From an uncultured bacterium (GTDB lineage: Bacteria; Actinomycetota; Coriobacteriia; Coriobacteriales; Coriobacteriaceae), in NCBI GenBank assembly GCA_905214285.1, contig CAJMLI010000002.1, positions 101,015 to 165,014 of the forward strand: DNA of 64,000 nt. Reading direction: 5' to 3'. The stretch's first letter is position 1; each line of letters opens with the position of its first letter. This document shows, in pieces, positions 3,998-61,870 of this stretch. The notes under the pieces were generated by a model that ran no database searches, was not told the DNA's origin, and saw nothing but the letters and a program-made list of their open reading frames with translations. A program made the translations under genes and the position numbers.

Positions 3998-4000
3998 AAC

Positions 4001-4155
4001 CGACCAAAAAAGGGACAGTTTATTTTGGCAGGTTTTTCCTGCGGTTTTGTCCTTTTAGCGAAAAGCGCCCCGCAACTGGCTCAATTCCAGTTGCGGGGCG
4101 CTTGCGTTCGCCCGGATAAAACCGACCAAAATAAACCTGTCCCTTTTTGGCGGGT
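4001..4155. repeat. Composite palindromic intergenic element: two inverted ~38-nt arms (aaccgaccaaaa.aaacctgtccctttttggc) around a perfect 14-bp-stem hairpin (gcgccccgcaactgg ctcaattc cagttgcggggcgc)
   Basis: Read directly from the sequence. A single related arm recurs at 52884-52918. Confidence 0.7.
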
Positions 4156-4328
4156 TAGTCCCAGAAGCTGTCTTCTTCGTCCTCGGATTTGGGGCCGCGG
4201 TCGACATACATCTTATGGGTGCGCTTCTCCATTACAAAGGCAAGAATCGCAAACAGCAGGATGCCGCCGGCGAAAAGGATGGCAAAACCGGTGCGGGTGC
4301 CAAACAAAAAGGAAAAAACTGCGTCCAT
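4155..4328 (-). CDS. Small hypothetical membrane protein, 57 aa: hydrophobic N-terminus and acidic C-terminal tail
   Basis: Hand-translated minus-strand ORF MDAVFSFLFGTRTGFAILFAGGILLFAILAFVMEKRTHKMYVDRGPKSEDEEDSFWD. It falls below the 60-aa cutoff of the supplied ORF track. GAAGG lies 8 nt upstream of the ATG. Confidence 0.35.
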   Translation of the reverse strand: MDAVFSFLFGTRTGFAILFAGGILLFAILAFVMEKRTHKMYVDRGPKSEDEEDSFWD

Positions 4329-6349: not shown

Positions 6350-6426
6350 GCGGCGTTACCTCAGCTGGATAGAGGGTCTGACTACGAATCAGAACGTCAT
6401 AGGTTCGAATCCTATACGCCGCACCA
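6350..6426 (+). tRNA. tRNA-Arg (anticodon ACG)
   Basis: Acceptor GCGGCGT/ACGCCGC, D-arm CCTCAGCTGGATAGAGG, anticodon loop CTACGAA, T-arm ATAGGTTCGAATCCTAT, CCA encoded. Confidence 0.85.
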
Positions 6427-6437
6427 TTTGAGATTAA

Positions 6438-6465
6438 AGCTCCCGGCAACGGGGGCTTTTCTTTT
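6438..6465 (+). terminator. Rho-independent terminator after tRNA-Arg
   Basis: agctcccggcaacgggggcttttctttt; the same design as the tRNA-Leu terminator. Confidence 0.5.
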
Positions 6466-6588
6466 ACGCCAGCTTGAGTGCTTTCGTCCAAAGGGACGAT
6501 TTCCTGTCGACTCGTGTAAGATTCCGAGTAGATGTCGCGACTTATTCGCGACCACTCCTTCTCAAGCGACCGATCAGGGTGATATTTC

Positions 6589-9122: not shown

Positions 9123-9213
9123 GGAGAGCTGACCGAGAGGCCGAAGGTGCTCGCCTGCTAAGCGAGTATGCCCCAAAAGGGCATCTGGGGTTCGAATCCC
9201 CAGCTCTCCGCCA
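9123..9213 (+). tRNA. tRNA-Ser (anticodon GCT), long variable arm
   Basis: Acceptor GGAGAGC/GCTCTCC, anticodon arm CTCGC-CTGCTAA-GCGAG, variable arm TATGCCCCAAAAGGGCATC, T-arm TGGGGTTCGAATCCCCA, GCCA end. Confidence 0.85.
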
Positions 9214-9229
9214 GTATGACTTGAAAGAA

Positions 9230-9253
9230 GGGTCCCATTTGGGGCCCTTTTTT
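9230..9253 (+). terminator. Terminator after tRNA-Ser (GGGTCCC ATTT GGGGCCC + TTTTTT)
   Basis: Seen in sequence; repeated at 9420-9442. Confidence 0.55.
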
Positions 9254-9261
9254 GTGCGGAG

Positions 9262-9402
9262 AAAGGAGGCTGGGGATTCGAACCCGAGAGGGCACGGGCG
9301 TTAAGCAAACGCGAAAGCGTTTGTAGCCCGTGGGCGAAAAGCCGCCAGGCTTTGAAGCCGGAGGGCATGCGCAGCATGCCCGGACATCCCCAGCTCTCCG
9401 CC
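9262..9402. other. tRNA-Ser-derived structured segment: an inverted T-arm fragment (ggctggggattcgaaccc), a nested hairpin with a GAAA tetraloop, an 8-bp hairpin (gggcatgc gca gcatgccc), then a direct tRNA-Ser 3' fragment (ggacatccccagctctccgcca)
   Basis: Seen in sequence. It does not fold into a canonical tRNA on either strand. Confidence 0.3.
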
Positions 9403-9419
9403 AGTACGAATTTGAAGAA

Positions 9420-9473
9420 GGGTCCCATTTGGGGCCCTTTTTATTATCAAGAATGGCGGCTGGGGATTCGAAC
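9420..9473. repeat. Second copy of the tRNA-Ser terminator plus an inverted T-arm fragment (ggctggggattcgaacc)
   Basis: About 90-nt direct repeat: 9199-9290 versus 9389-9480. Confidence 0.6.
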
Positions 9474-9475
9474 CT

Positions 9476-31485: not shown

Positions 31486-34311
31486 ATGGGAGGAAACGTG
31501 GCTGAGAACCTAAGCAACCAGTCTGTACCCGAAGCCGCGGCGCGCGTCGCTGCCGTGGTCAACCGCCTCGTTAACCGAATCGGCTCGAATGCCGAATCCA
31601 AGGAGCGTCTCGCCGAGATCGAGATCCCCGAGGAGCTGCGCGACAATCTGGCGCTGTTCTTGCGCCTGGAGCGCCGTGTGCTTAGCGAGTATGATCCCGA
31701 GATCGCGGACCTGTTCGACAAGATTTTGACAGCCGAGATTGTGGCCAATGCCGGCAACCCCGGTAGCCGTGCTGCCGACGAGTCCGTCGACGAGCAGGGC
31801 GTGCCCACTGCCGACGAGCCCACCGCCGTGGCGTTTCGCGAGGTTGTCGATATGATCGACAGCCTGCCGCTCGATAAACAGCAGGTTATCGTCCGCGCCT
31901 TTACGAGCTTCTTCCATCTGGCAAACCTGTCGGAGGAGAATTACCGTGTGGCGCAGCTGCGCGAGCGCGAGGCCGGCGCATCGACCGATACCGAGGTCGA
32001 TCCTGCCAACGAACTCACCGTCGCCTATCACCAGTTGGTAAACGAGATGGGTGTCGAGGGCGCCAACGAGCTGCTCGGCAAGCTCGAGTTCCACCCTGTC
32101 TTTACCGCACATCCCACCGAGGCCCGTCGTAAGGCCGTCGAGGGCAAGATTCGCCGTATCTCCAACCTGCTGGAGGAGCGTCCGCGTCTGGGCGGTTCCG
32201 ACCTGGTGGAGAACGAGCGCCATATGCTGCAGGAGATCGACGCCCTGGTGCGTACGAGCCCCATCGCGCTCAAGAAACCCACGCCGGTCGAGGAAGCCGA
32301 TACCATCATCGACATCTTCGATAACACGCTGTTCGACGTTATTCCCGTCATCTATCGTCGTTTTGATGACTGGGTGCTGGGCGATAAGGCCGGCACCGTG
32401 CCGCCGCTGTGCCCGGCGTTCTTCCACCCCGGCAGCTGGATCGGTTCCGACCGCGACGGTAACCCGAACGTCACCGCCAAGGTGAGCCGCGAGGTCGCTG
32501 CCAAGTATTTCACCCATATGGTGCTCAAGCTCGAGGACAAGTGCCGCCGCATCGGCCGCAACCTCACGCTCGAGGCCACCTACAGCAAGCCGTCTGCCGA
32601 GCTCATCAACCTGTGGAACCATCAGGTCGAGATGAGCACTCAGTACACCGCACGTGCTGAACTAATCTCCGAGCACGAGCCGCATCGCGCCGTCATGCTC
32701 GTCATGGCCGACCGACTCAACGCCACCGTGCGTCGCATCACCGACACCATGTACCACAGCGCCGATGAGTTCCTGGAGGACCTGCGCGTCGTCCAGCGCT
32801 CGCTGGCCGCCTGCGGTGCCGTCCGTGCTGCCTACGGCCCGGTCCAGACCATCATCTGGCAGGTCGAGTCCTTCGGCTTCCACATGGTCGAGATGGAGTT
32901 CCGTCAGCACTCCGTGGTGCACGCCCGCGCCCTCAAGGATATCCACGAGAACGGTATCCATGGTGATCTGCAGCCCATGACGCGCGAGGTCATCGATACC
33001 TTCCGCGCTATCGGCTCCATCCAAAAGCGTTACGGCAAGAAGATGGCGCACCGCTACATCATCTCGTTCACCAAGAGCGCCCAGCATGTGGCCGACGTCT
33101 TTGAGCTTGCCCACCTGTCCTTTGCGCATGAGGAGGATGTCCCCGAGCTCGACGTGATCCCGCTGTTCGAGCAGCTCGAGGACCTCGAGGGCTGCGTCGA
33201 CGTGCTCGACCAGATGCTTACGCTGCCCGTGGTGCAAAAGCGCCTTGCCCAGACCAACCGTCGCATGGAGGTCATGCTGGGCTATTCCGACTCCTCCAAG
33301 GATGCCGGTCCTACCACGGCTATGCTCGCGCTGCACTCCGCACAGGAGCGTATTGCCAAGTGGGCCGAGAAGAACGATATCGATCTGGTGCTCATGCACG
33401 GTCGCGGCGGTGCCGTGGGCCGTGGTGGCGGCCCGGCCAACAAGGCCGTGCTGGCGCAGCCCAAGGGTTCGGTCAACTGCTTCTTTAAGCTCACCGAGCA
33501 GGGCGAGGTCATCTTTGCCCGTTACGGTAACCGCACGCTGGCTCAGCGCCATGTTGAGTCCGTTGCCGCTGCAACGCTTTTGCAGTCGGCCCCGAGCGTC
33601 GAGAAGACCAACACCGAGACCACGCAGAAGTTCTGGGATATGGCCGAGAAGCTCAACGCTGCAAGCCACGAGCGCTATCTGGATCTGCTGAACACCGAGG
33701 ACTTTACACCGTGGTTCTCGACCGTGACGCCGCTGACCGAGGTCGGTCTGCTGCCGATCGGCTCGCGCCCGGCCAAGCGCGGTCTGGGTGCCAAGTCGCT
33801 CGACGACCTGCGTACCATTCCGTGGATTTTCAGCTGGAGCCAGGCTCGCATTAACCTGGCCGCTTGGTACGGTCTGGGTACCGCCTGCGAGCAGCTGGGC
33901 GATCTTGACCAGCTCAAGGCTGCCTACCAGGAGTGGCCGTTCTTCCGCACGTTCATCGACAACATCGAGATGTCGATCGCTAAGACCGACCAGCGCATCG
34001 CCAAGATGTATCTGCACCTGGGCGATCGCCAGGATCTGTCCAAGAAGGTCTTCACCGAGATGCAGCTCACGCGTAAGTGGGTCCTTGCCATCGTCGGTGA
34101 CGAGTGGCCGCTACAGCGCCGTCGCGTGCTTGGCTGCGCCGTTCGCGTGCGTAACCCCTATGTCGACGCCCTGTCCATCGCTCAGGTCCGCGCCCTTCGC
34201 GAGGTGCGTATGAACCAGGACGAGATGGCCGAGGAGAAGAAGGCCGAGTACATGAGCCTGATTCTTTCGACTGTGACCGGCGTCTCGGCAGGATTGCAGA
34301 ACACGGGGTAA
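31486..34311 (+). CDS. ppc: Phosphoenolpyruvate carboxylase Ppc
   Basis: VFTAHPTEARR, GYSDSSKDAGPTTA, C-terminal LQNTG. The start is ambiguous (ATG 31486 or GTG 31498). Confidence 0.9.
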   Translation: MGGNVAENLSNQSVPEAAARVAAVVNRLVNRIGSNAESKERLAEIEIPEELRDNLALFLRLERRVLSEYDPEIADLFDKILTAEIVANAGNPGSRAADESVDEQGVPTADEPTAVAFREVVDMIDSLPLDKQQVIVRAFTSFFHLANLSEENYRVAQLREREAGASTDTEVDPANELTVAYHQLVNEMGVEGANELLGKLEFHPVFTAHPTEARRKAVEGKIRRISNLLEERPRLGGSDLVENERHMLQEIDALVRTSPIALKKPTPVEEADTIIDIFDNTLFDVIPVIYRRFDDWVLGDKAGTVPPLCPAFFHPGSWIGSDRDGNPNVTAKVSREVAAKYFTHMVLKLEDKCRRIGRNLTLEATYSKPSAELINLWNHQVEMSTQYTARAELISEHEPHRAVMLVMADRLNATVRRITDTMYHSADEFLEDLRVVQRSLAACGAVRAAYGPVQTIIWQVESFGFHMVEMEFRQHSVVHARALKDIHENGIHGDLQPMTREVIDTFRAIGSIQKRYGKKMAHRYIISFTKSAQHVADVFELAHLSFAHEEDVPELDVIPLFEQLEDLEGCVDVLDQMLTLPVVQKRLAQTNRRMEVMLGYSDSSKDAGPTTAMLALHSAQERIAKWAEKNDIDLVLMHGRGGAVGRGGGPANKAVLAQPKGSVNCFFKLTEQGEVIFARYGNRTLAQRHVESVAAATLLQSAPSVEKTNTETTQKFWDMAEKLNAASHERYLDLLNTEDFTPWFSTVTPLTEVGLLPIGSRPAKRGLGAKSLDDLRTIPWIFSWSQARINLAAWYGLGTACEQLGDLDQLKAAYQEWPFFRTFIDNIEMSIAKTDQRIAKMYLHLGDRQDLSKKVFTEMQLTRKWVLAIVGDEWPLQRRRVLGCAVRVRNPYVDALSIAQVRALREVRMNQDEMAEEKKAEYMSLILSTVTGVSAGLQNTG

Positions 34312-34339
34312 TCGATAACCCTGTAGTCGTCCGGGTCCG

Positions 34340-34451
34340 CCATCAGTTTACTTTTAGGCACGTCCTCGGACATGCAAGAAGCCCTCGCTGCGCACTTCGT
34401 GCGGCGAGGGCTTCTTGCGTCCTGCGGAGTGTGCCTAAAAGTAAACTGATG
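34340..34451. repeat. 112-bp palindromic repeat element, copy 1: 22-bp perfect outer inverted repeat (ccatcagtttacttttaggcac / gtgcctaaaagtaaactgatgg) around a ~68-bp core (cgtcctcggacatgcaagaagccctcgctgcgcacttcgtgcggcgagggcttcttgcgtcctgcggagt) carrying a nested hairpin
   Basis: Read directly from the sequence. A related copy lies at 36813-36932. Confidence 0.8.
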
Positions 34452-34727
34452 GGGCCCTACGATGTCCGGTCTTCGGCGGATTACTGCTGGGGAAAAGATA
34501 GCGCGCTTCGCGCGTTTTGGATGGGGTCTGTCTCGGCGGCGCGTTTGGCGCTTCTCGCCTTGCGACTGTAGCGCCCGCGGTCCTCATTGGGACCACGGCC
34601 GTTTTGTTATGGGTCAAATATGAACGTTGTGTTAATGAGTCGGTGGACGGTGGTGTTTTTCGGTGAGCGGCGTATCCTTCCAACGGTTTGACTAGTGTGT
34701 CAGTTGAAAGGAAGAGGGCGCTCGTCA

Positions 34728-36005
34728 ATGTTTGAATGTGAACTACCGTTTGACCACAAGACGTTGCATCTGGAGCTCGAGGACAAGAACTTCGCGGGTG
34801 TGATGGAAGGTCATCAAAACGAGTTTAAGACTACAAAATCGCAGGAAGAGCTGGTAGAGGAGTCGCTTGCCAACCCTTATGGCTCGCCTTCGCTCGAGGA
34901 GCTTTGTGCTGGCAAAAAGGATATCGTAATTATCAGCTCTGACCATACGCGTCCCGTTCCTTCGCGTGTGACGATGCCTATTCTGCTGCATCACATTCAT
35001 GCCGCTGCGCCCGAGGCCCGTGTGCGTATTTTGGTTGCTACGGGTATGCACCGTCCGTCGACGCACGAGGAGCTCGTCAATAAGTATGGCGAGGACATCG
35101 TTGCCAACGAGGAAATCGTTATGCATGTCGCGACCGACGACAGCATGATGAAAAAGATCGGCACCCTGCCTTCTGGTGGCGAGTGCATCATCAACAAGAT
35201 TGCGGCCGATTGCGATCTGCTGCTTGCCGAGGGCTTTATTGAGCCGCACTTCTTTGCCGGTTTCTCTGGTAGCCGCAAGTCCGTCCTGCCTGGCATCGCC
35301 AGCTACAAGACCATCATGTACAACCACAACGGTCAGTTTGTGAACGATTCCCACTCGCGTGCCGGCAACCTGTGCCACAACCACGTGAGCGAGGACATGT
35401 TTGCCGCCGCCGAGATGGCTCACCTTGCCTTTGTGCTCAACGTGGTGCTCAACGGCAAGCACGAGGTCATTGGCTCCTTTGCCGGCGACATCCACAAGGC
35501 GCACGAGGCTGGCTGCGAGTTCGTGAAGAGCCTTGCCGGCGTTGAGCCCGTCGAGTGCGAGATCGCCATTACCACTAACGGCGGCTACCCCCTCGATCAG
35601 AACATCTATCAGGCTGTGAAGGGCATGTGCGCTGCCGAGGCCACGCTTCCCGAGGGCGGCGTGATCATCGACGTCGCCGGTTGTGCCGACGGTCACGGCG
35701 GCGAGGGCTTCTATCACAACATCGCCGACAACGATCCGGCAGAGTTTGAGCGCGCCTGTATCGATCGTCCTAAGGACGAGACCCTGCCCGATCAGTGGAC
35801 GAGCCAGATCTTTGCCCGCATCCTGGCGCATCACCCCGTGATCATGGTCACCGACCTGTGCGATCACCAGATGCTCAAGGATATGCACATGACGCCGGTC
35901 AACACCCTCGAGGAGGCGCTCAAGCTCGCCTTTGAGATGAAGGGTGCCGACGCCAAGGTCGCCGTCATCCCCGATGGCCTGGGTGTTGTCGTCGCGCAGC
36001 ACTAG
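34728..36005 (+). CDS. larA: Lactate racemase LarA family protein (nickel-pincer-nucleotide-dependent racemase/epimerase)
   Basis: LarA/DUF2088 architecture. SDHTRPVPS motif, conserved His/Lys positions (KSVLPG, HNHV), about 425 aa. RBS AAGGAAGAGGG precedes ATG 34728. Confidence 0.7.
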   Translation: MFECELPFDHKTLHLELEDKNFAGVMEGHQNEFKTTKSQEELVEESLANPYGSPSLEELCAGKKDIVIISSDHTRPVPSRVTMPILLHHIHAAAPEARVRILVATGMHRPSTHEELVNKYGEDIVANEEIVMHVATDDSMMKKIGTLPSGGECIINKIAADCDLLLAEGFIEPHFFAGFSGSRKSVLPGIASYKTIMYNHNGQFVNDSHSRAGNLCHNHVSEDMFAAAEMAHLAFVLNVVLNGKHEVIGSFAGDIHKAHEAGCEFVKSLAGVEPVECEIAITTNGGYPLDQNIYQAVKGMCAAEATLPEGGVIIDVAGCADGHGGEGFYHNIADNDPAEFERACIDRPKDETLPDQWTSQIFARILAHHPVIMVTDLCDHQMLKDMHMTPVNTLEEALKLAFEMKGADAKVAVIPDGLGVVVAQH

Positions 36006-36054
36006 TGCGCGGCTTAAACGAATCGTTTATAACCGACAAGAAAGATAAGGTTTT

Positions 36055-36786
36055 ATGCTTACCAAACTCCTCTGCGAATTCGGCGCGACGGCCCTCATGA
36101 TCGTCTTTGGCGTGGGCGTGCACTGCGATACCGTGCTCAAAGGCACCAAGTATCAGGGCTCCGGCCATATGTTTGCCATCACCACCTGGTCTTTTGGCAT
36201 CTCGGTCTGCCTGTTTGTCTTTGGCGGCGCCGTGTGCATGAACCCCGCTATGGTGCTTGCCCAGTGCATCGTCGGTCTGGTGCCGTGGGGCAACTGCATC
36301 CCCTTCATGCTTGCCGATATGCTCGGCGGCTTTGTGGGTGCCGTGATCGCTTGGTTTATGTATGCCGATGAGTTCAAGGCTTCCGAGGGTGTCGTCGATC
36401 CCATTGCCCAGCGCAACATCTTCTCGACCAACCCCACCACCGAGGGTACGAACTATGCCCGCAACTTCTTCTGCGAGGCAATCTGCACCTTTGTGTTCAT
36501 TAGCGCCATCCTTGCTGCTGCTAGCCGTGCTGGTGAGGACGTTTTGATGCTCGCCATCTGCGTCGGCCTGATTGTCTGGGCCGTTGGCATGGGCATGGGC
36601 GGCATCACCGGCTTCGCTATGAACCAGGCACGTGACCTTGGTCCCCGCCTTGCTTATCAGGTGCTGCCGATTAAGAACAAGGCTGACAACAACTGGAAGT
36701 ATGGTCTGCTTGTTCCTGGCATCGCGCCGTTTGTCGGTGCTATTGTCGCCGCGCTGTTTGTGCACGGTTTCTTGGGCATGTTCTAG
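36055..36786 (+). CDS. MIP-family channel (aquaglyceroporin, LarD/GlpF-like)
   Basis: Six TM helices. First NPA box intact (CMNPAMV); second box reads NQA (AMNQARDLGPR). Adjacent to larA, as with the lactic-acid channel LarD in Lactobacillus. Confidence 0.8.
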   Translation: MLTKLLCEFGATALMIVFGVGVHCDTVLKGTKYQGSGHMFAITTWSFGISVCLFVFGGAVCMNPAMVLAQCIVGLVPWGNCIPFMLADMLGGFVGAVIAWFMYADEFKASEGVVDPIAQRNIFSTNPTTEGTNYARNFFCEAICTFVFISAILAAASRAGEDVLMLAICVGLIVWAVGMGMGGITGFAMNQARDLGPRLAYQVLPIKNKADNNWKYGLLVPGIAPFVGAIVAALFVHGFLGMF

Positions 36787-36812
36787 TCGAAGGACGGCTC
36801 TATAAGGTTCGG

Positions 36813-36932
36813 GCTCGGCAAGGGTTTACTTTCCAACGCGTCCTCGGACATGCAAAAAGGCTCGCTGCGCACTTTGTGCGGCGAGCCTTTTTGCGTCCTG
36901 CGGAATGCGTTGGAAAGTAAACCCTTGCCGAG
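36813..36932. repeat. 120-bp palindromic repeat element, copy 2: 26-bp outer inverted repeat (gctcggcaagggtttactttccaacgc / gcgttggaaagtaaacccttgccgagc) around the same core as copy 1 (cgtcctcggacatgcaaaaaggctcgctgcgcactttgtgcggcgagcctttttgcgtcctgcggaatg)
   Basis: Read directly from the sequence. Confidence 0.8.
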
Positions 36933-37109
36933 CCCTGGGCATTCTTGGCTGTGTTCGAACAAGCAACCCAACATATATATCTGAATTTGGATGTGAGGGG
37001 CGCTTTGTTTTTGGGTGCCCTTACAAGAAAGCGTGACTTGGGGATGGGATGGGCACTTTGCTTTTTAGTGCCCTGAGATGGGGGCGAGACTTTGGAATGA
37101 GAGGCTAAC

Positions 37110-37649
37110 TTAGGTGAAGAGGGGCTGTATGGCTGATAGGTAGTCTTTGGCTACGTCGGCTTTGTCTGCTTGGAAGTTGTGCCAGGCCCACCATTGGACC
37201 ATTCCTACGAAGCTTGAGGCTATGTGGTGTAGTAGGAAACTGCGGTCCATGGTGCCGGCGGGGCCTGCGGGGTCGACGGGGACGGTTTCGGCTGCGCGCG
37301 ACATGATGGTCTTGCGGAGACAGTCGGCGAAGACGCGTGAGCCGGCGCCGGCTACGAGGGCTCGAACGCCCTGGCGGCGTTCCCAGAGATTGTTGAGGAT
37401 ATGCTCGACCTGCACGAGTGGGTCGTCGAGCGGTGTGCCATCGTCGTCAAGAGCGTGGGTGCAGATGTCGCTCACGAGTTCGGACAGTAGGTCGTCTTTG
37501 CTCTTAAAGAGACCGTAGAATGTCGCGCGGCCTACGTGAGCGCGAGCGATGATGTCGCCGACGGTGATCTTGCCGTAATCTTCCTCGCGCAGGAGCTCGG
37601 AGAACGCCGCAACGATGGCGGCGCGGCTTTTTGCCTTGCGGGCATCCAT
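37110..37649 (-). CDS. TetR/AcrR family transcriptional regulator
   Basis: N-terminal HTH (AAIVAAFSELLREEDYGKITVGDIIARAHVGRATFYGLFKSKDDLL). True start is M72 of the listed ORF; upstream of it the frame is Arg-rich nonsense overlapping larC. Confidence 0.8.
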   Translation of the reverse strand: MDARKAKSRAAIVAAFSELLREEDYGKITVGDIIARAHVGRATFYGLFKSKDDLLSELVSDICTHALDDDGTPLDDPLVQVEHILNNLWERRQGVRALVAGAGSRVFADCLRKTIMSRAAETVPVDPAGPAGTMDRSFLLHHIASSFVGMVQWWAWHNFQADKADVAKDYLSAIQPLFT

Positions 37650-37651
37650 GG

Positions 37652-38572
37652 CTATGCGTCCGCGTGAACGAGCAGGCAGCGGAGCGTGCCGGAGCAACCC
37701 TCGTAGGGGCGTTTGCCGGCGCCGTAGCCGACAGCTTCGATGCGGTAGCGTGAGGGCAGTTGGTCGGACGTACGCAGGGCGGTGACGATGGCGGCGCCTG
37801 TGGGCGTTACGAGCTCGCCAGCGACCGGTGCAGGCGTGAGAGCGATATTGCCCGCCTGGCACAGGTTGACGACAGCGGGGACGGGAATGGGCATGAGGCC
37901 GTGTGCACAGCGGATGGTTCCGTGGCCCTCGGAGAGCGACTCGACCACGATGTCCTCAATGCCCAGGTCATCGAGGCAGATGGCGACAGAGCAGACGTCG
38001 ACGATGGAGTCGATGGCGCCCACCTCGTGGAACATGACGGTCTCGGGCGTTTTGCCGTGAGCCTTGGCCTCGGCAGCGGCGAGTGCGGTAAAGATGGCGA
38101 GGGCGCGACGCTTGGCGCCATCGCTTAGCTGCGAGCCATCGATAATGGCGGTGACGTCCGCCAAAGACCGGTGGTGATGGTGGTGGGCGTGATGATGCCC
38201 CTCGTGGCCATGGCCGTGGATCTCATGGTCATGGTCGTGTGTGTGCTCGTGCTCATGCTCGTCATGGTCATGATGATGGTGGTGCTCATGCTCATGCATA
38301 TGCTCGACAGCTGCTTCGTTGCCGTAGAGCCAGGCCATATCGTGGTCGTGGTTCTCGAGCTCCTCTGCCAGCTGAACGTCAAAGTCGCAGGCGTCGATGC
38401 CGTGCTTGTTTACGCGCGTGACGGCGATCGAAAAGCCATCGACCGGCAGCGTGGCGAGCTGTTCGCGCAGCTGCTCCTCACTGGCATCCAGGTCGAGCAG
38501 GGCCGCAACGGTCATATCGCCGCTGATGCCCGAGGTGCCGTCGATGATAAGCGTGTGCTGATGGTTGGACAT
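37652..38572 (-). CDS. larC: LarC N-terminal (DUF111/LarC1) domain protein with a His-rich linker; the C-terminal CTP-hydrolysing domain appears to be absent
   Basis: N-terminus TLIIDGTSGISGDMTVAALLDL matches the LarC/DUF111 start. A long HEHEHHHHHDHDEHEHEHTHDHDHEIHGHGHEGHHHAHHHHH tract follows. The ORF ends 2 nt from the tetR start, at about 306 aa. Confidence 0.65.
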   Translation of the reverse strand: MSNHQHTLIIDGTSGISGDMTVAALLDLDASEEQLREQLATLPVDGFSIAVTRVNKHGIDACDFDVQLAEELENHDHDMAWLYGNEAAVEHMHEHEHHHHHDHDEHEHEHTHDHDHEIHGHGHEGHHHAHHHHHRSLADVTAIIDGSQLSDGAKRRALAIFTALAAAEAKAHGKTPETVMFHEVGAIDSIVDVCSVAICLDDLGIEDIVVESLSEGHGTIRCAHGLMPIPVPAVVNLCQAGNIALTPAPVAGELVTPTGAAIVTALRTSDQLPSRYRIEAVGYGAGKRPYEGCSGTLRCLLVHADA

Positions 38573-38582
38573 GGGATGCTCC

Positions 38583-39365
38583 TTAGCGGGCGCAGGGCGT
38601 GCCGGCGCTCAGATGATTGATAAGACTTGCCTGGTAGGCGGCACCAAAGCCGTTGTCGATATTGACGACCGAGACGCCGCTGGCGCAGGAGTTGAGCATG
38701 GCGAGCAGCGCGGCCACGCCACCAAAGTTCGCGCCGTAGCCCACGCTGGTGGGAACGGCGATGACCGGGCAACTCACCAGGCCGCCGATGACGCTCGCCA
38801 GGGCGCCTTCCATGCCGGCGATGGCGATGACCACCTGCGCCTGGGCAAGTTCCTCGGCATGCGCAAGCAGGCGGTGCAGCCCGGCGACGCCCACGTCGTA
38901 AAGGCGATCGACTTCGTTGCCATAGAACTCGGCCGTCAACGCGGCTTCCTCGGCGACGGGCAGGTCGCTCGTGCCGGCGCAGGCGACAACGATGCGTCCG
39001 TTGCCGGTAGGGGAGGGCTTGCCGCCCACGAGGGCGAGCTGCGCGTCCGGGACATATCCCAGGTCGATGCCGTTGCCGAGAAGCTCCGAGGTGCGGGCGG
39101 CCTTTTTGGCGTCCAGGCGCGTGACCAGGATGCGCTCCTGGCCGGCATCGCGCAGCGCTTTGATAATGGCGGCAATCTGATCGGCGGTTTTACCGGCACC
39201 GTAGACAACCTCGCCGGCTCCCTGGCGCACCCCGCGCGAAAGATCGAGCTGCGCAAAGCCCAAATCGGCGGTCGGAGCCGTCTGGATGCGCGTGAGGGCG
39301 ACGGCCGGGGTGACTGCCCCGCCGGCAACATCGCTCAGTAACTGCTCAAGATCTCGCTTATCCAT
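38583..39365 (-). CDS. larB: LarB (PurE-like carboxylase for nickel-pincer cofactor synthesis)
   Basis: PurE/AIR-carboxylase-like C-terminal half (IVVACAGTSDLPVAEEA...VIAIAGMEGALASVIGGLVSCPVIAVPTSVGYG) plus a LarB N-extension. ATG 39365 with GAAGGGAA RBS; an alternative GTG lies at 39398. Confidence 0.7.
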   Translation of the reverse strand: MDKRDLEQLLSDVAGGAVTPAVALTRIQTAPTADLGFAQLDLSRGVRQGAGEVVYGAGKTADQIAAIIKALRDAGQERILVTRLDAKKAARTSELLGNGIDLGYVPDAQLALVGGKPSPTGNGRIVVACAGTSDLPVAEEAALTAEFYGNEVDRLYDVGVAGLHRLLAHAEELAQAQVVIAIAGMEGALASVIGGLVSCPVIAVPTSVGYGANFGGVAALLAMLNSCASGVSVVNIDNGFGAAYQASLINHLSAGTPCAR

Positions 39366-40115: not shown

Positions 40116-40371
40116 GGCGGGCCTTTCCAAGTGCAGTTGTATTGGGGCACATTGTCGCACGTGACGAGCGCGGGCGGGTGTCACGGCGCGTCAATTGTTT
40201 CGTCTCCGTCAAGTCTTTGGGCAGGAGCCACTTTTTCGCGGCACATCGACGCGAGTGCGATAAGATAGAACGCCATGTCTGGCTGCGCGGTTTACGCAGG
40301 CTGGGCAAATCTGTACGACGCCGCCCGGAACGACACGGGGCGGCACAGATCCATAAAGGAGGATCACTGGT

Positions 40372-49039: not shown

Positions 49040-49276
49040 GGCCCCCGTGGTCAAAAAATGCCAAATATGAGTACTGTTGCAAAAGAAGTGCCATATTTTT
49101 CGGCCTGCTCTGAGCGAAAATGGGCTCAAAATCGATTTATCTAACTCCCTTTAAAGGGCGTTTGACGGCTTTCAACCTCTTCGAATCGCTCAAGCTAGGC
49201 AATTTGCTCTCGATTTTGCTGCTACTAAATTTGTGACAGTACTCATATTTGCCACTTTTTGACCACGGGGTATCCG
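49040..49276. mobile_element. MITE-like non-autonomous element, 237 bp, with ~44-bp imperfect terminal inverted repeats and no ORF
   Basis: Left: ggcccccgtggtcaaaaaatgccaaatatgagtactgttgcaaa. Right (reverse complement): ggataccccgtggtcaaaaagtggcaaatatgagtactgtcacaaa. About 90% identical. Confidence 0.5.
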
Positions 49277-52817: not shown

Positions 52818-52883
52818 GGTGCAATGGGGGACAGATTGCTTTGCTCCAGAAGTAAGATGTGGCGTTTCCGCAGATAAAACCGA

Positions 52884-52918
52884 CCAAAACAAACCTGTCC
52901 CTTTTTGGCAGGTGGAAG
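52884..52918. repeat. Third copy of the ~38-nt arm motif (gataaaaccgaccaaaacaaacctgtccctttttggcagg) seen at 4001-4155
   Basis: Only 2-3 mismatches to the arm at 4115-4153. Confidence 0.6.
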
Positions 52919-53316: not shown

Positions 53317-53450
53317 CGCCGTCGAAGGCATGACCAACTACCTGGGCCTCTAACTCCATCCCGCCCATCAGTTGCGGTGAAATACAGACTGTTTTGGCCG
53401 TCAAAGGCCTTATCTACTCCGTATTCCACCGCAACTTTTTTGTGGGGTGG
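53317..53450 (+). repeat. About 130-bp repeat family, copy A: ends in a 15-bp-stem hairpin (gttgcggtgaaatac ... gtattccaccgcaac) with a ~35-nt structured loop and a T-run
   Basis: About 88% identical to 61737-61870. Confidence 0.75.
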
Positions 53451-61736: not shown

Positions 61737-61870
61737 GATGAGGGCATGACTGACTATCTGAGCCCTCAATTCCACCCCGCCCATCGGTTGCGGTGAAATA
61801 CGGACTGTTTTGGCTGTCAAAAGTCTCATCTACTCCGTATTCCACCGCAACTTTTTTGTGAGGGTCGGGA
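61737..61870 (+). repeat. About 130-bp repeat family, copy B (terminator-like, directly after kdpC)
   Basis: See 53317-53450. Confidence 0.75.

Follow-up and report, generated by a model that had tools for sequence, protein, structure and literature searches.

The DNA analyzed in this study is a 64-kb window (64,000 bp of contig CAJMLI010000002.1, assembly GCA_905214285.1; all positions given below are those of this whole stretch) of an uncultured bacterium of the Coriobacteriaceae. It carries a lactate racemase (lar) locus, which contains two related palindromic repeats, here designated copy 1 and copy 2. The gene order, determined by Pfam searches and exact-protein look-ups, is hisS, ppc, copy 1, larA, a gene encoding a MIP channel, copy 2, TetR, larC, larB, HAD (haloacid dehalogenase) hydrolase, aspS leader RNA and aspS. 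The predicted LarA protein occurs with identical sequence in many human-gut assemblies, and the related loci stem from isolates of Collinsella aerofaciens; the window is therefore presumed to belong to C. aerofaciens or to a very near relative. The features of the locus are as follows.

31486-34311, plus strand: ppc (phosphoenolpyruvate carboxylase; PF00311, E = 2.7e-218), located upstream of copy 1
34340-34452, plus strand: copy 1, the entire hairpin element (covariance model 130 bits, E = 2.9e-28; 68 bits on the minus strand)
34728-36005, plus strand: larA (Pfam and exact-protein look-up)
36055-36786, plus strand: MIP/LarD-like channel gene (Pfam and exact-protein look-up), which together with larA forms the unit preceding copy 2
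36811-36935, plus strand: copy 2, the entire hairpin element (covariance model 139 bits, E = 3e-30)
37110-37649, minus strand: TetR regulator gene (TetR_N)
37652-38572, minus strand: larC (Ni_insertion)
38583-39365, minus strand: larB (AIRC)

The HAD hydrolase gene, which comes after larB in this order, is also located on the minus strand. The hairpin of copy 1 starts 28 nt past the stop codon of ppc, and that of copy 2 starts 24 nt past the MIP stop codon, between the convergent larA-MIP and TetR-larC-larB units. The two copies are direct repeats placed on either side of larA-MIP. A preliminary description of this DNA, made from the sequence, had them flank exactly these two genes, which is true by position; however, TetR, larC and larB continue past copy 2 on the other strand, so that the lar genes extend beyond the stretch between the two copies.

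Both repeats are real and far beyond chance expectation. They constitute near-perfect hairpins of 113 nt (34340-34452) and 125 nt (36811-36935), which share a near-identical core of approximately 64-66 nt and differ in their outer arms, where the differences are fully compensated; each stem difference between copy 1 and copy 2 is matched by a change on the opposite arm. The component parts are listed below.

34340-34361, plus strand: left outer arm of copy 1, 22 nt, site-specific, containing GTTTACTTT, perfectly paired with 34431-34452; the arm columns covary
34362-34373, plus strand: left motif of copy 1, GTCCTCGGACAT, the side of the U.C mismatch and the AU bulge
34374-34418, plus strand: inner hairpin of copy 1, composed of GCAAGAAG, a GC-rich stem, the loop TTC (34396-34398), the returning stem and CTTCTTGC
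34419-34428, plus strand: right motif of copy 1, GTCCTGCGGA, invariant among the aligned elements
34431-34452, plus strand: right outer arm of copy 1, complement of the left arm (22 bp, no mismatch)
34501-34520, plus strand: GCGCGCTTCGCGC, a small hairpin resembling a canonical terminator, with GTTTTGG after it, part of the tail found with the ppc-site element
36811-36839, plus strand: left outer arm of copy 2, 29 nt, perfectly paired with 36907-36935
36840-36851, plus strand: left motif of copy 2, GTCCTCGGACAT, invariant among the aligned elements
36852-36894, plus strand: inner hairpin of copy 2, GCAAAAAGGCTCGCTGCGCAC-TTT-GTGCGGCGAGCCTTTTTGC (A5, stem, T5)
36895-36904, plus strand: right motif of copy 2, GTCCTGCGGA, invariant among the aligned elements
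36907-36935, plus strand: right outer arm of copy 2, complement of the left arm (29 bp)

The preliminary description had placed two related palindromic repeats here, and both are present, with the near-identical core, perfect arms and strong folds. It gave outer inverted repeats of 22-26 bp and an end of copy 1 at 34451; the arms are indeed perfect, but their lengths are 22 and 29 bp and copy 1 ends at 34452. The gtttacttt/aaagtaaac motif that it reported in the outer arms was recovered as GTTTACTTT/AAAGTAAAC in both copies. The degenerate pattern GTTTAYTTT has six matches in the window, compared with 0.26 expected; four of these lie inside copies 1 and 2, and two (GTTTATTTT) at 3998-4156. The predicted folding energies are -92.3 kcal/mol for copy 1 (z = -13.8) and -108.4 kcal/mol for copy 2 (z = -18.3), and the reverse strands of both copies fold almost equally well. 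The inner hairpin of copy 1 has the layout of an A-tract, a stem and a T-tract, and thus resembles a bidirectional terminator.

The motifs GTCCTCGGACAT and GTCCTGCGGA were found nowhere else in the 64-kb window, and a covariance model run over this window identified only copies 1 and 2, the next match (31 bits) being a generic hairpin. Two other candidate features of the repeats were rejected: (i) a small open reading frame in the core (with its ATG in GGACATGCAA), since 1-nt indels on each side of the stem shift the frame between the copies, and (ii) a promoter in the right half (TTGCGT ... AAAGTA), which is not conserved in other members and was not called as a site by a promoter scan.

In order to place the repeats in a wider context, the pattern CCTCGGACATGC-N30-50-GCGTCCTGCGG was scanned against one genome per bacterial species, which yielded at least 120 stretches; such a scan returns core-bearing genomes, so that empty alleles at the sites described below were not directly sampled. 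All named organisms among the matches listed are Collinsella or Coriobacteriaceae. The Collinsella stretches (at least 120) contain at least 128 copies with the strict core, and among the matches listed, representing approximately 100 species-level genomes, all of them lie at seven sites, each directly downstream of one of the following genes.

grcA-like gene downstream of pflB: at least 27 copies
pta: at least 8 copies
opp-type ABC transporter ATPase gene (oppF): at least 11 copies
groEL: at least 19 copies
class IV (ilvE-like) aminotransferase gene: at least 12 copies
ppc: at least 23 copies
MIP channel gene: at least 28 copies

Among the matches listed, all 128 strict copies have the same orientation as the upstream gene, the upstream genes having been identified by Pfam. 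At all seven strict sites the hairpin starts 11-32 nt after the upstream stop codon, and the downstream 1.5 kb are syntenic. One core sequence is shared by the ppc, ilvE-like, grcA and MIP sites. The presence of identical cores at different sites, combined with site-specific arms, indicates conversion between copies.

An 899,693-bp record of C. aerofaciens (NZ_OY725717.1) was searched with the covariance model, which revealed seven strong copies: after the genes for a P-type ATPase, grcA3, thrB, fba, pfkA and groL, and one upstream of ftsE, beside an IS21 element (IS, insertion sequence). Six of the seven lie 12-30 nt past a co-oriented stop codon. Approximately four distant relatives are also present, located after dut, usp and manA, together with one inverted copy. 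The strong copies of this record and the sites that lie outside it give at least 13 strong copies per genome, and the copy number may be put at roughly 13-30, at fixed orthologous sites. The downstream neighbor was checked at eight sites: it is a convergent gene at six of them (MIP, fba, pfkA, thrB, ATPase and groL) and a tandem gene at ppc and grcA. This record is filed in PLSDB as 'plasmid 6' of C. aerofaciens TSDC17.2-1.1, and it is chromosomal DNA, containing recA, ftsK, rpoBC, ribosomal operons and many tRNA ligase genes. Plasmid carriage of the element was rejected for this reason, the single PLSDB match being this mislabeled 0.9-Mb chromosomal piece.

The family also comprises more divergent forms. 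In some genomes an alternative element (GTCCTCGCAC.../...GTGCTGCGGA) replaces or joins copy 1 after ppc, accompanied by half elements and a repeated tail of approximately 75 nt; in other genomes, this ppc-site tail recurs together with whole or half elements. An inverted partner with GTCCTCGGGCATGC/GCCCCCTGCGGAAA is located approximately 175 bp from the opp copy, and mini forms consist of CGTCCTCG, a short hairpin and CTGCGGA. Such a mini form follows ppc in Enorma massiliensis, and only more distant species lack the ppc copy. As far as sequence comparison can tell, the two repeats of the window are copies of a genus-level family of Collinsella, with a mini relative in Enorma, whose members are predicted to form near-perfect hairpins of approximately 135 nt. 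The dispersed repeat family anticipated in the preliminary description has thus been found, in the form of the seven conserved strict-core sites and additional diverged copies.

The spacer between ppc and larA (34312-34727 in the window) varies in length from 376 to 993 bp among Collinsella genomes (loci L016-L128). This variation results from tandem whole and half elements with the tail of approximately 75 nt, plus an AT-rich insert of approximately 450 bp in some genomes.

The dispersal of the family, with its several subfamilies, could suggest that the element is an active or recently active MITE (miniature inverted-repeat transposable element), REP (repetitive extragenic palindromic) or REPIN unit, for which a transposase would be supplied in trans. 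The adjacency of IS elements to two copies and the occurrence of alternative subfamilies at the same ppc site in different genomes may be read in the same way, as may the nested self-similarity of the hairpins, in which the GTCC-hairpin-TGCGG arrangement appears at two levels and could have arisen when one unit inserted into another's loop. We nevertheless regard such mobility as highly unlikely. The same seven sites are occupied in the approximately 100 core-bearing species-level genomes, with no extra site among the matches listed, the flanks are conserved at each site, and the arms are the least conserved part of the element, which is the opposite of what is seen in terminal inverted repeats. 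No consistent direct repeat that could represent a target-site duplication was found at the borders of the seven sites; the GTCC...TGCGG flanks belong to the element itself. Collections of viral contigs and phage genomes contained no copies, and in NZ_OY725717.1, the 0.9-Mb record examined for this purpose, the surroundings of both IS200/IS605 tnpA genes are free of the element.

A related proposal is that larA-MIP forms a gene cassette, with copies 1 and 2 as its recombination borders. Two direct repeats with a nearly identical core of 64-66 nt do lie on both sides of these genes, and the gap between ppc and aspS holds different genes in different relatives. This proposal is scarcely credible in view of the following: (i) larA directly follows ppc in all 31 loci that span the ppc-larA spacer; (ii) the hybrid of the left arm of copy 1 and the right arm of copy 2, expected as a deletion product, was not seen among about 50 copies at both sites; (iii) relatives without lar genes lack the entire larA-to-HAD block, not merely larA-MIP, and also lack the element; and (iv) at least ten unrelated genes are followed by the same element. 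In four relatives with 78-85% identical Ppc, hisS, ppc and aspS follow each other directly in three cases and a sugar ABC transporter occupies the gap in the fourth; the element is absent from the ppc-aspS gap of all four. Since these relatives lack the whole block, the segment inserted in C. aerofaciens is taken to extend from larA through the HAD gene. Copy 1 is located at the left edge of this block and copy 2 in its middle, the right edge being unmarked by any element. Judged from gene order, the link of the elements to lar is incidental. The preliminary description had noted that the repeats look like MITE- or REP-type mobile or recombinogenic repeats and had raised, as a point to be checked, whether they bracket other accessory cassettes; a role as MITE-type or recombinogenic cassette borders is not supported by these data, as the arms are the most variable part, target-site duplications and phage copies were not found in the searches described above, and the downstream gene order is conserved at every site checked. 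An association with variable gene content was rejected on the same grounds, namely the synteny of the downstream 1.5 kb at all seven sites.

Two further observations concern the lar locus. The ppc-aspS gap contains nothing at three of the loci compared (L132, L135 and L136), the sugar ABC transporter at L133, other genes at L131 and L134, and, in the window, the entire lar cluster; here an aspS RNA motif (RF02930, 76 bits) at 40277-40360, upstream of aspS, marks the right edge of the lar insertion. The larC gene holds a tandem 39-nt repeat rich in His codons (38223-38297), which presumably agrees with the His-rich region typical of LarC.

The structure was analyzed in an alignment of 35 elements from the seven sites, which were hand-picked for good hairpins, and in an unbiased set of 100 unique elements. 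The 35-element alignment contains 57 consensus pairs, 38 of which show double compensatory changes; 98.9% of the cells are paired (40-48% when the partners are slid), and double changes occur in 403 cells, compared with 117 in shuffled controls. Variability is greatest in the columns of the outer arms, where double changes affect 28 of the 29 pairs; the pair next to the core is fixed and the center is invariant, with the left motif GTCCTCGGACAT conserved in 35 of 35 elements. The MIP site of other strains carries different, fully compensated outer arms. In the unbiased set, perfect 29-bp arms are present in 43 of 100 elements and arms with at most one mismatch in 61 of 100, and about 10% of the elements are hybrid, recombinant or truncated. 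Hybrid or truncated elements were noted at loci L096, L026/L090, L047, L064 and L106/L110/L122, and include a fusion of the grcA-site left arm with the core and right arm from the groEL site, as well as combinations of arms from different alleles. Such hybrids either arose by genuine recombination within the shared core or are chimeras of metagenome assembly caused by the identical core of 64 nt.

The arm mismatches of the unbiased set comprise 21 G.U (G.T) and 26 C.A, i.e. there is no preference for G.U. This symmetry, together with the fact that the arms are swapped by Watson-Crick changes only, leads us to conclude that the arms are constrained on both strands or at the level of the DNA itself. 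Quasi-palindromes are known to mutate by template switching from one arm to the other, a route that would give such a pattern. A role at the DNA level may also be considered, in which each palindrome would be extruded as a cruciform or hairpin, or be bound by a dimeric DNA protein, and serve as topological or recombination landmarks downstream of transcribed genes; binding of nucleoid proteins or gyrase has been reported for REP and BIME (bacterial interspersed mosaic element) repeats. Besides the symmetric mismatches (G.T versus C.A), such a role would account for the nearly equal folding of both strands, the strictly Watson-Crick covariation of the arms with hardly any one-sided intermediates, and the presence, at the ppc and grcA sites, of whole and half units in tandem. 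The hybrids of arms from different alleles or sites and the identical cores shared between sites would likewise point to recombination or conversion at the core, although some hybrids may be metagenome assembly chimeras. We consider this role quite unlikely, since a symmetric function does not predict co-orientation with the upstream gene at a distance of no more than approximately 30 nt from the stop codon, and the conserved asymmetries of the element are strand-specific.

Of the six basal pairs of the inner stem, three have A at the 5′ and U at the 3′ position in 33-35 of 35 sequences, and in the remaining three the only alternative is G-C; the outer arms, by contrast, flip AU to UA freely. 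Such polarity is expected if a U-tract and its mirror A-tract are selected. The covariance model gives about 140 bits on the plus strand and about 80 on the minus strand, and only on the transcribed strand do the conserved G.U positions form valid pairs. The internal loop GTCCTCG / CTGCGGA, with its U.C mismatch, bulged U and AU bulge, is invariant, asymmetric and never 'repaired'. The pairs within the loop motif covary between subfamilies (GGAC/GTCC to GGGC/GCCC; TCC/GGA to TTC/GAA). An invariant loop that escapes repair and has covarying pairs of its own must be under selection, and it is probable, to judge from this conservation, that the loop is a contact site for a protein or nuclease.

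This leads to the possibility of a recognition element of the 3′ untranslated region (3′-UTR), in which a protein or nuclease (e.g. RNase III) would bind or cut the invariant loop within a long double-stranded RNA and so set the stability of the mRNA. The genes concerned would be pfl/grcA, pta, ppc, fba, pfkA, larA-MIP, groEL, opp, thrB and others. No feature other than GTCCTCG / CTGCGGA is common to all subfamilies, including the mini forms and the copies without a U-tract; its covarying pairs, a mismatch and bulges that are never 'repaired' while the arms are kept perfect, the orientation locked to the upstream gene, and the position of several sites after genes of glycolysis and the pyruvate node all speak for recognition of this kind. 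On the other hand, the gene set is mixed (it includes groEL, the opp ATPase, thrB and the metal ATPase genes), and a signal read on one strand of RNA needs no arms that are perfect on both strands. We regard it as an unlikely explanation when taken by itself, and it is compatible with, rather than exclusive of, a 3′-end module of the kind described below. In its most explicit form, which we put forward only as a speculative and slightly less likely proposal, the hairpins may form an unrecognized class of 3′-UTR elements, whose loop (GUCCUCG / CUGCGGA) would be read by a dedicated protein or nuclease coordinating the fate of the mRNAs of a fixed gene set, the arms being kept by template switching. 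If true, this would constitute a post-transcriptional 'regulon' marked at the 3′ end in the Coriobacteriaceae, comprising the genes named above and the metal ATPase gene.

The explanation that we favor, by a modest degree of confidence, is that the element is a 3′-end module of transcription units, i.e. a bidirectional terminator-like hairpin that also provides a stable 3′ stem and insulates neighboring units. This reading is preferred because of the position and orientation of the copies, their A-tract/GC-stem/T-tract core and their frequent location between convergent genes. Bidirectional terminators or insulators had been among the roles suggested in the preliminary description, and of these roles they fit best, given the placement of copies directly after co-oriented stop codons and, in many cases, between convergent genes. 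A hairpin with a U-tract, preceded by an A-tract, is present as A5/T5 in copy 2 and in a weaker form (AAGAAG/CTTCTT) in copy 1. The family membership, position, orientation, structure and covariation described above were observed directly; from them we infer termination or stabilization.

According to this model, the element would be transcribed as the last part of the mRNA of the upstream gene. The GC-rich inner hairpin, flanked by A- and T-tracts in most copies, would stop RNA polymerase arriving from either side, and either this hairpin or the full hairpin of 55-60 bp would remain as a stable stem at the 3′ end, barring 3′ exonucleases and insulating the neighboring units. In the window, copy 1 would end the ppc transcript ahead of the larA promoter region, and copy 2 would end the larA-MIP operon, facing the convergent TetR-larC-larB operon. 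The complementarity of the arms may be kept by selection for pairing on both strands or by arm-to-arm template switching.

Several observations weigh against the 3′-end module. No element follows the highly expressed tuf, ribosomal operons, rpoBC, fusA, eno, adhE or ppdK genes of NZ_OY725717.1, and high expression alone was rejected as an explanation of the placement for this reason. The orientation rule is broken by two strong copies, namely the inverted partner at the oppF site and the copy upstream of ftsE beside IS21. The lack of a G.U preference among the arm mismatches must be counted here as well. In the subfamily located upstream of ftsE and after pfkA and thrB, the inner hairpin is not flanked by an A/U tract, and classical intrinsic termination therefore cannot be the universal function. 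A simple terminator scan of the window called neither core. Finally, if polymerase stopped at the inner hairpin, the right arm would never be transcribed, so that RNA folding alone leaves the perfect outer arms unexplained.

The window contains a second pair of similar elements, a 124-nt direct repeat (53324-53447 and 61740-61863, 86% identical), which is itself a long hairpin ending in TTTTTTG. By its sequence it appears to represent a second repeated terminator-hairpin family in the same genome, and it was counted in favor of the 3′-end module.

Other repeats were also noted in the window. The GTTTAYTTT matches outside copies 1 and 2 belong to an inverted repeat at 3998-4156, whose 39-nt arms contain GTTTATTTT and enclose a terminator hairpin (GCGCCCCGCAACTGG...CCAGTTGCGGGGCGC). 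One arm of this repeat (AAAACCGACCAAAAYAAACCTGTCCCTTTTTGGC) recurs at 52876-52906; the nested design is that of copies 1 and 2, and the family is a different one. The 3′ ends of tRNA genes are repeated together with their terminators (1432-1491, 1621-1680 and 6409-6468; 9196-9284 and 9386-9474), and the duplicated tRNA-Ser 3′ end, with the two copies 190 nt apart, may be the remnant of an integration site. A 41-nt inverted repeat (49043-49083 and 49230-49270; 90% complementary, with 146 nt between the arms) lies in an AT-richer intergenic stretch.

C. aerofaciens is among the most prevalent actinobacteria of the human gut, and its gene regulation is almost unstudied. For annotation, a sequence-defined and orientation-locked 3′-end element would offer ready-made markers of transcript ends in the genus, and metagenome studies should take into account that identical cores of approximately 64 nt can produce chimeric assemblies. 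The family is also a compact natural system in which to ask how near-perfect palindromes stay perfect while conserved mismatches are protected, and its invariant internal loop gives a concrete starting point in the search for a factor that would bind the RNA or DNA. As regards lactate racemase the outcome is negative: the repeats mark no mobile lar cassette and are uninformative about the mobility of the racemase genes. The findings are of moderate relevance to work on bacterial repeats, terminators and gut Actinobacteria.

A search of Rfam gave no family match to the region, the only hits being microRNA precursor hairpins far below threshold (36-38 bits versus gathering scores of 114-268). 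The Collinsella-1 RNA motif (RF01700) has been listed among candidate structured RNAs, with Collinsella and human gut metagenomes as its sources (PMC2864571). It gave no match to the region even at E <= 10, and it is hence a different motif. The literature, searched also with the motif strings, yielded no description of this repeat family.

The element was compared with several known systems. The REP/BIME sequences of enterobacteria and pseudomonads are extragenic imperfect palindromes with a conserved mismatch or bulge in the stem, located at the 3′ ends of genes or between convergent genes; they have been reported to stabilize upstream mRNA, aid termination and bind DNA proteins. The Collinsella element shares with them its extragenic location at 3′ ends and between convergent genes and its stem mismatch and bulge, and the mosaic tandems at the ppc and grcA sites resemble those of REP/BIME. 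In contrast, REPs are 20-40 nt in length, number hundreds per genome, carry a GTAG-type 5′ tetranucleotide and are associated with a RAYT (REP-associated tyrosine transposase) gene, whereas the Collinsella unit is of about 113-135 nt or longer, is present in seven strong and approximately four distant copies in 0.9 Mb (two in the 64 kb of the window), combines a conserved center with variable arms, and has no Y1 transposase gene nearby in NZ_OY725717.1.

ERIC (enterobacterial repetitive intergenic consensus) sequences, or IRU (intergenic repeat units), are 127-bp imperfect palindromes of low to moderate copy number, found in transcribed intergenic DNA across enterobacterial species, and their function is unresolved. 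Their similar length, imperfect palindromic structure, copy number and conservation across species are shared by the Collinsella element. There is no sequence relationship between the two, and ERIC occurs in both orientations and is conserved over its full length, whereas the Collinsella element is orientation-locked and conserved only in the core and internal loop. The Correia elements of Neisseria and the MITEs RUP, BOX and bcr1 are hairpin repeats of 100-150 nt that are co-transcribed with their neighbors and can be terminators or RNase III substrates. The Collinsella hairpins fall into a similar size range; MITEs, however, have terminal inverted repeats that are conserved, duplicate their target site and are polymorphic for presence or absence, and these features were not found among the core-bearing genomes sampled here.

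Integron attC sites are likewise imperfect palindromes that bracket genes and conserve structure and extrahelical bases over stem sequence. They differ in conserving the outer R''/R' boxes (RYYYAAC ... GTTRRRY) and in forming an array next to intI. An attC/integron origin was rejected, as GTTTACT comes first and AGTAAAC last, i.e. in reversed order, and the motif is absent from most family members; the neighbors in the window are ppc, the lar genes, TetR and aspS, with neither an integrase gene nor a cassette array among them. The element resembles bidirectional intrinsic terminators in its A-tract, GC-rich hairpin and T-tract directly after stop codons, often between convergent genes, but ordinary terminators do not form a sequence family and have neither outer arms of 22-45 bp nor a conserved internal loop. 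In its mode of action the element would be similar to the REP/BIME, ERIC and Correia-type repeats and to the bidirectional terminators, but it does not show the defining features of MITEs, REPs and attC sites considered above. The Collinsella repeats constitute a previously undescribed family of a known general kind.

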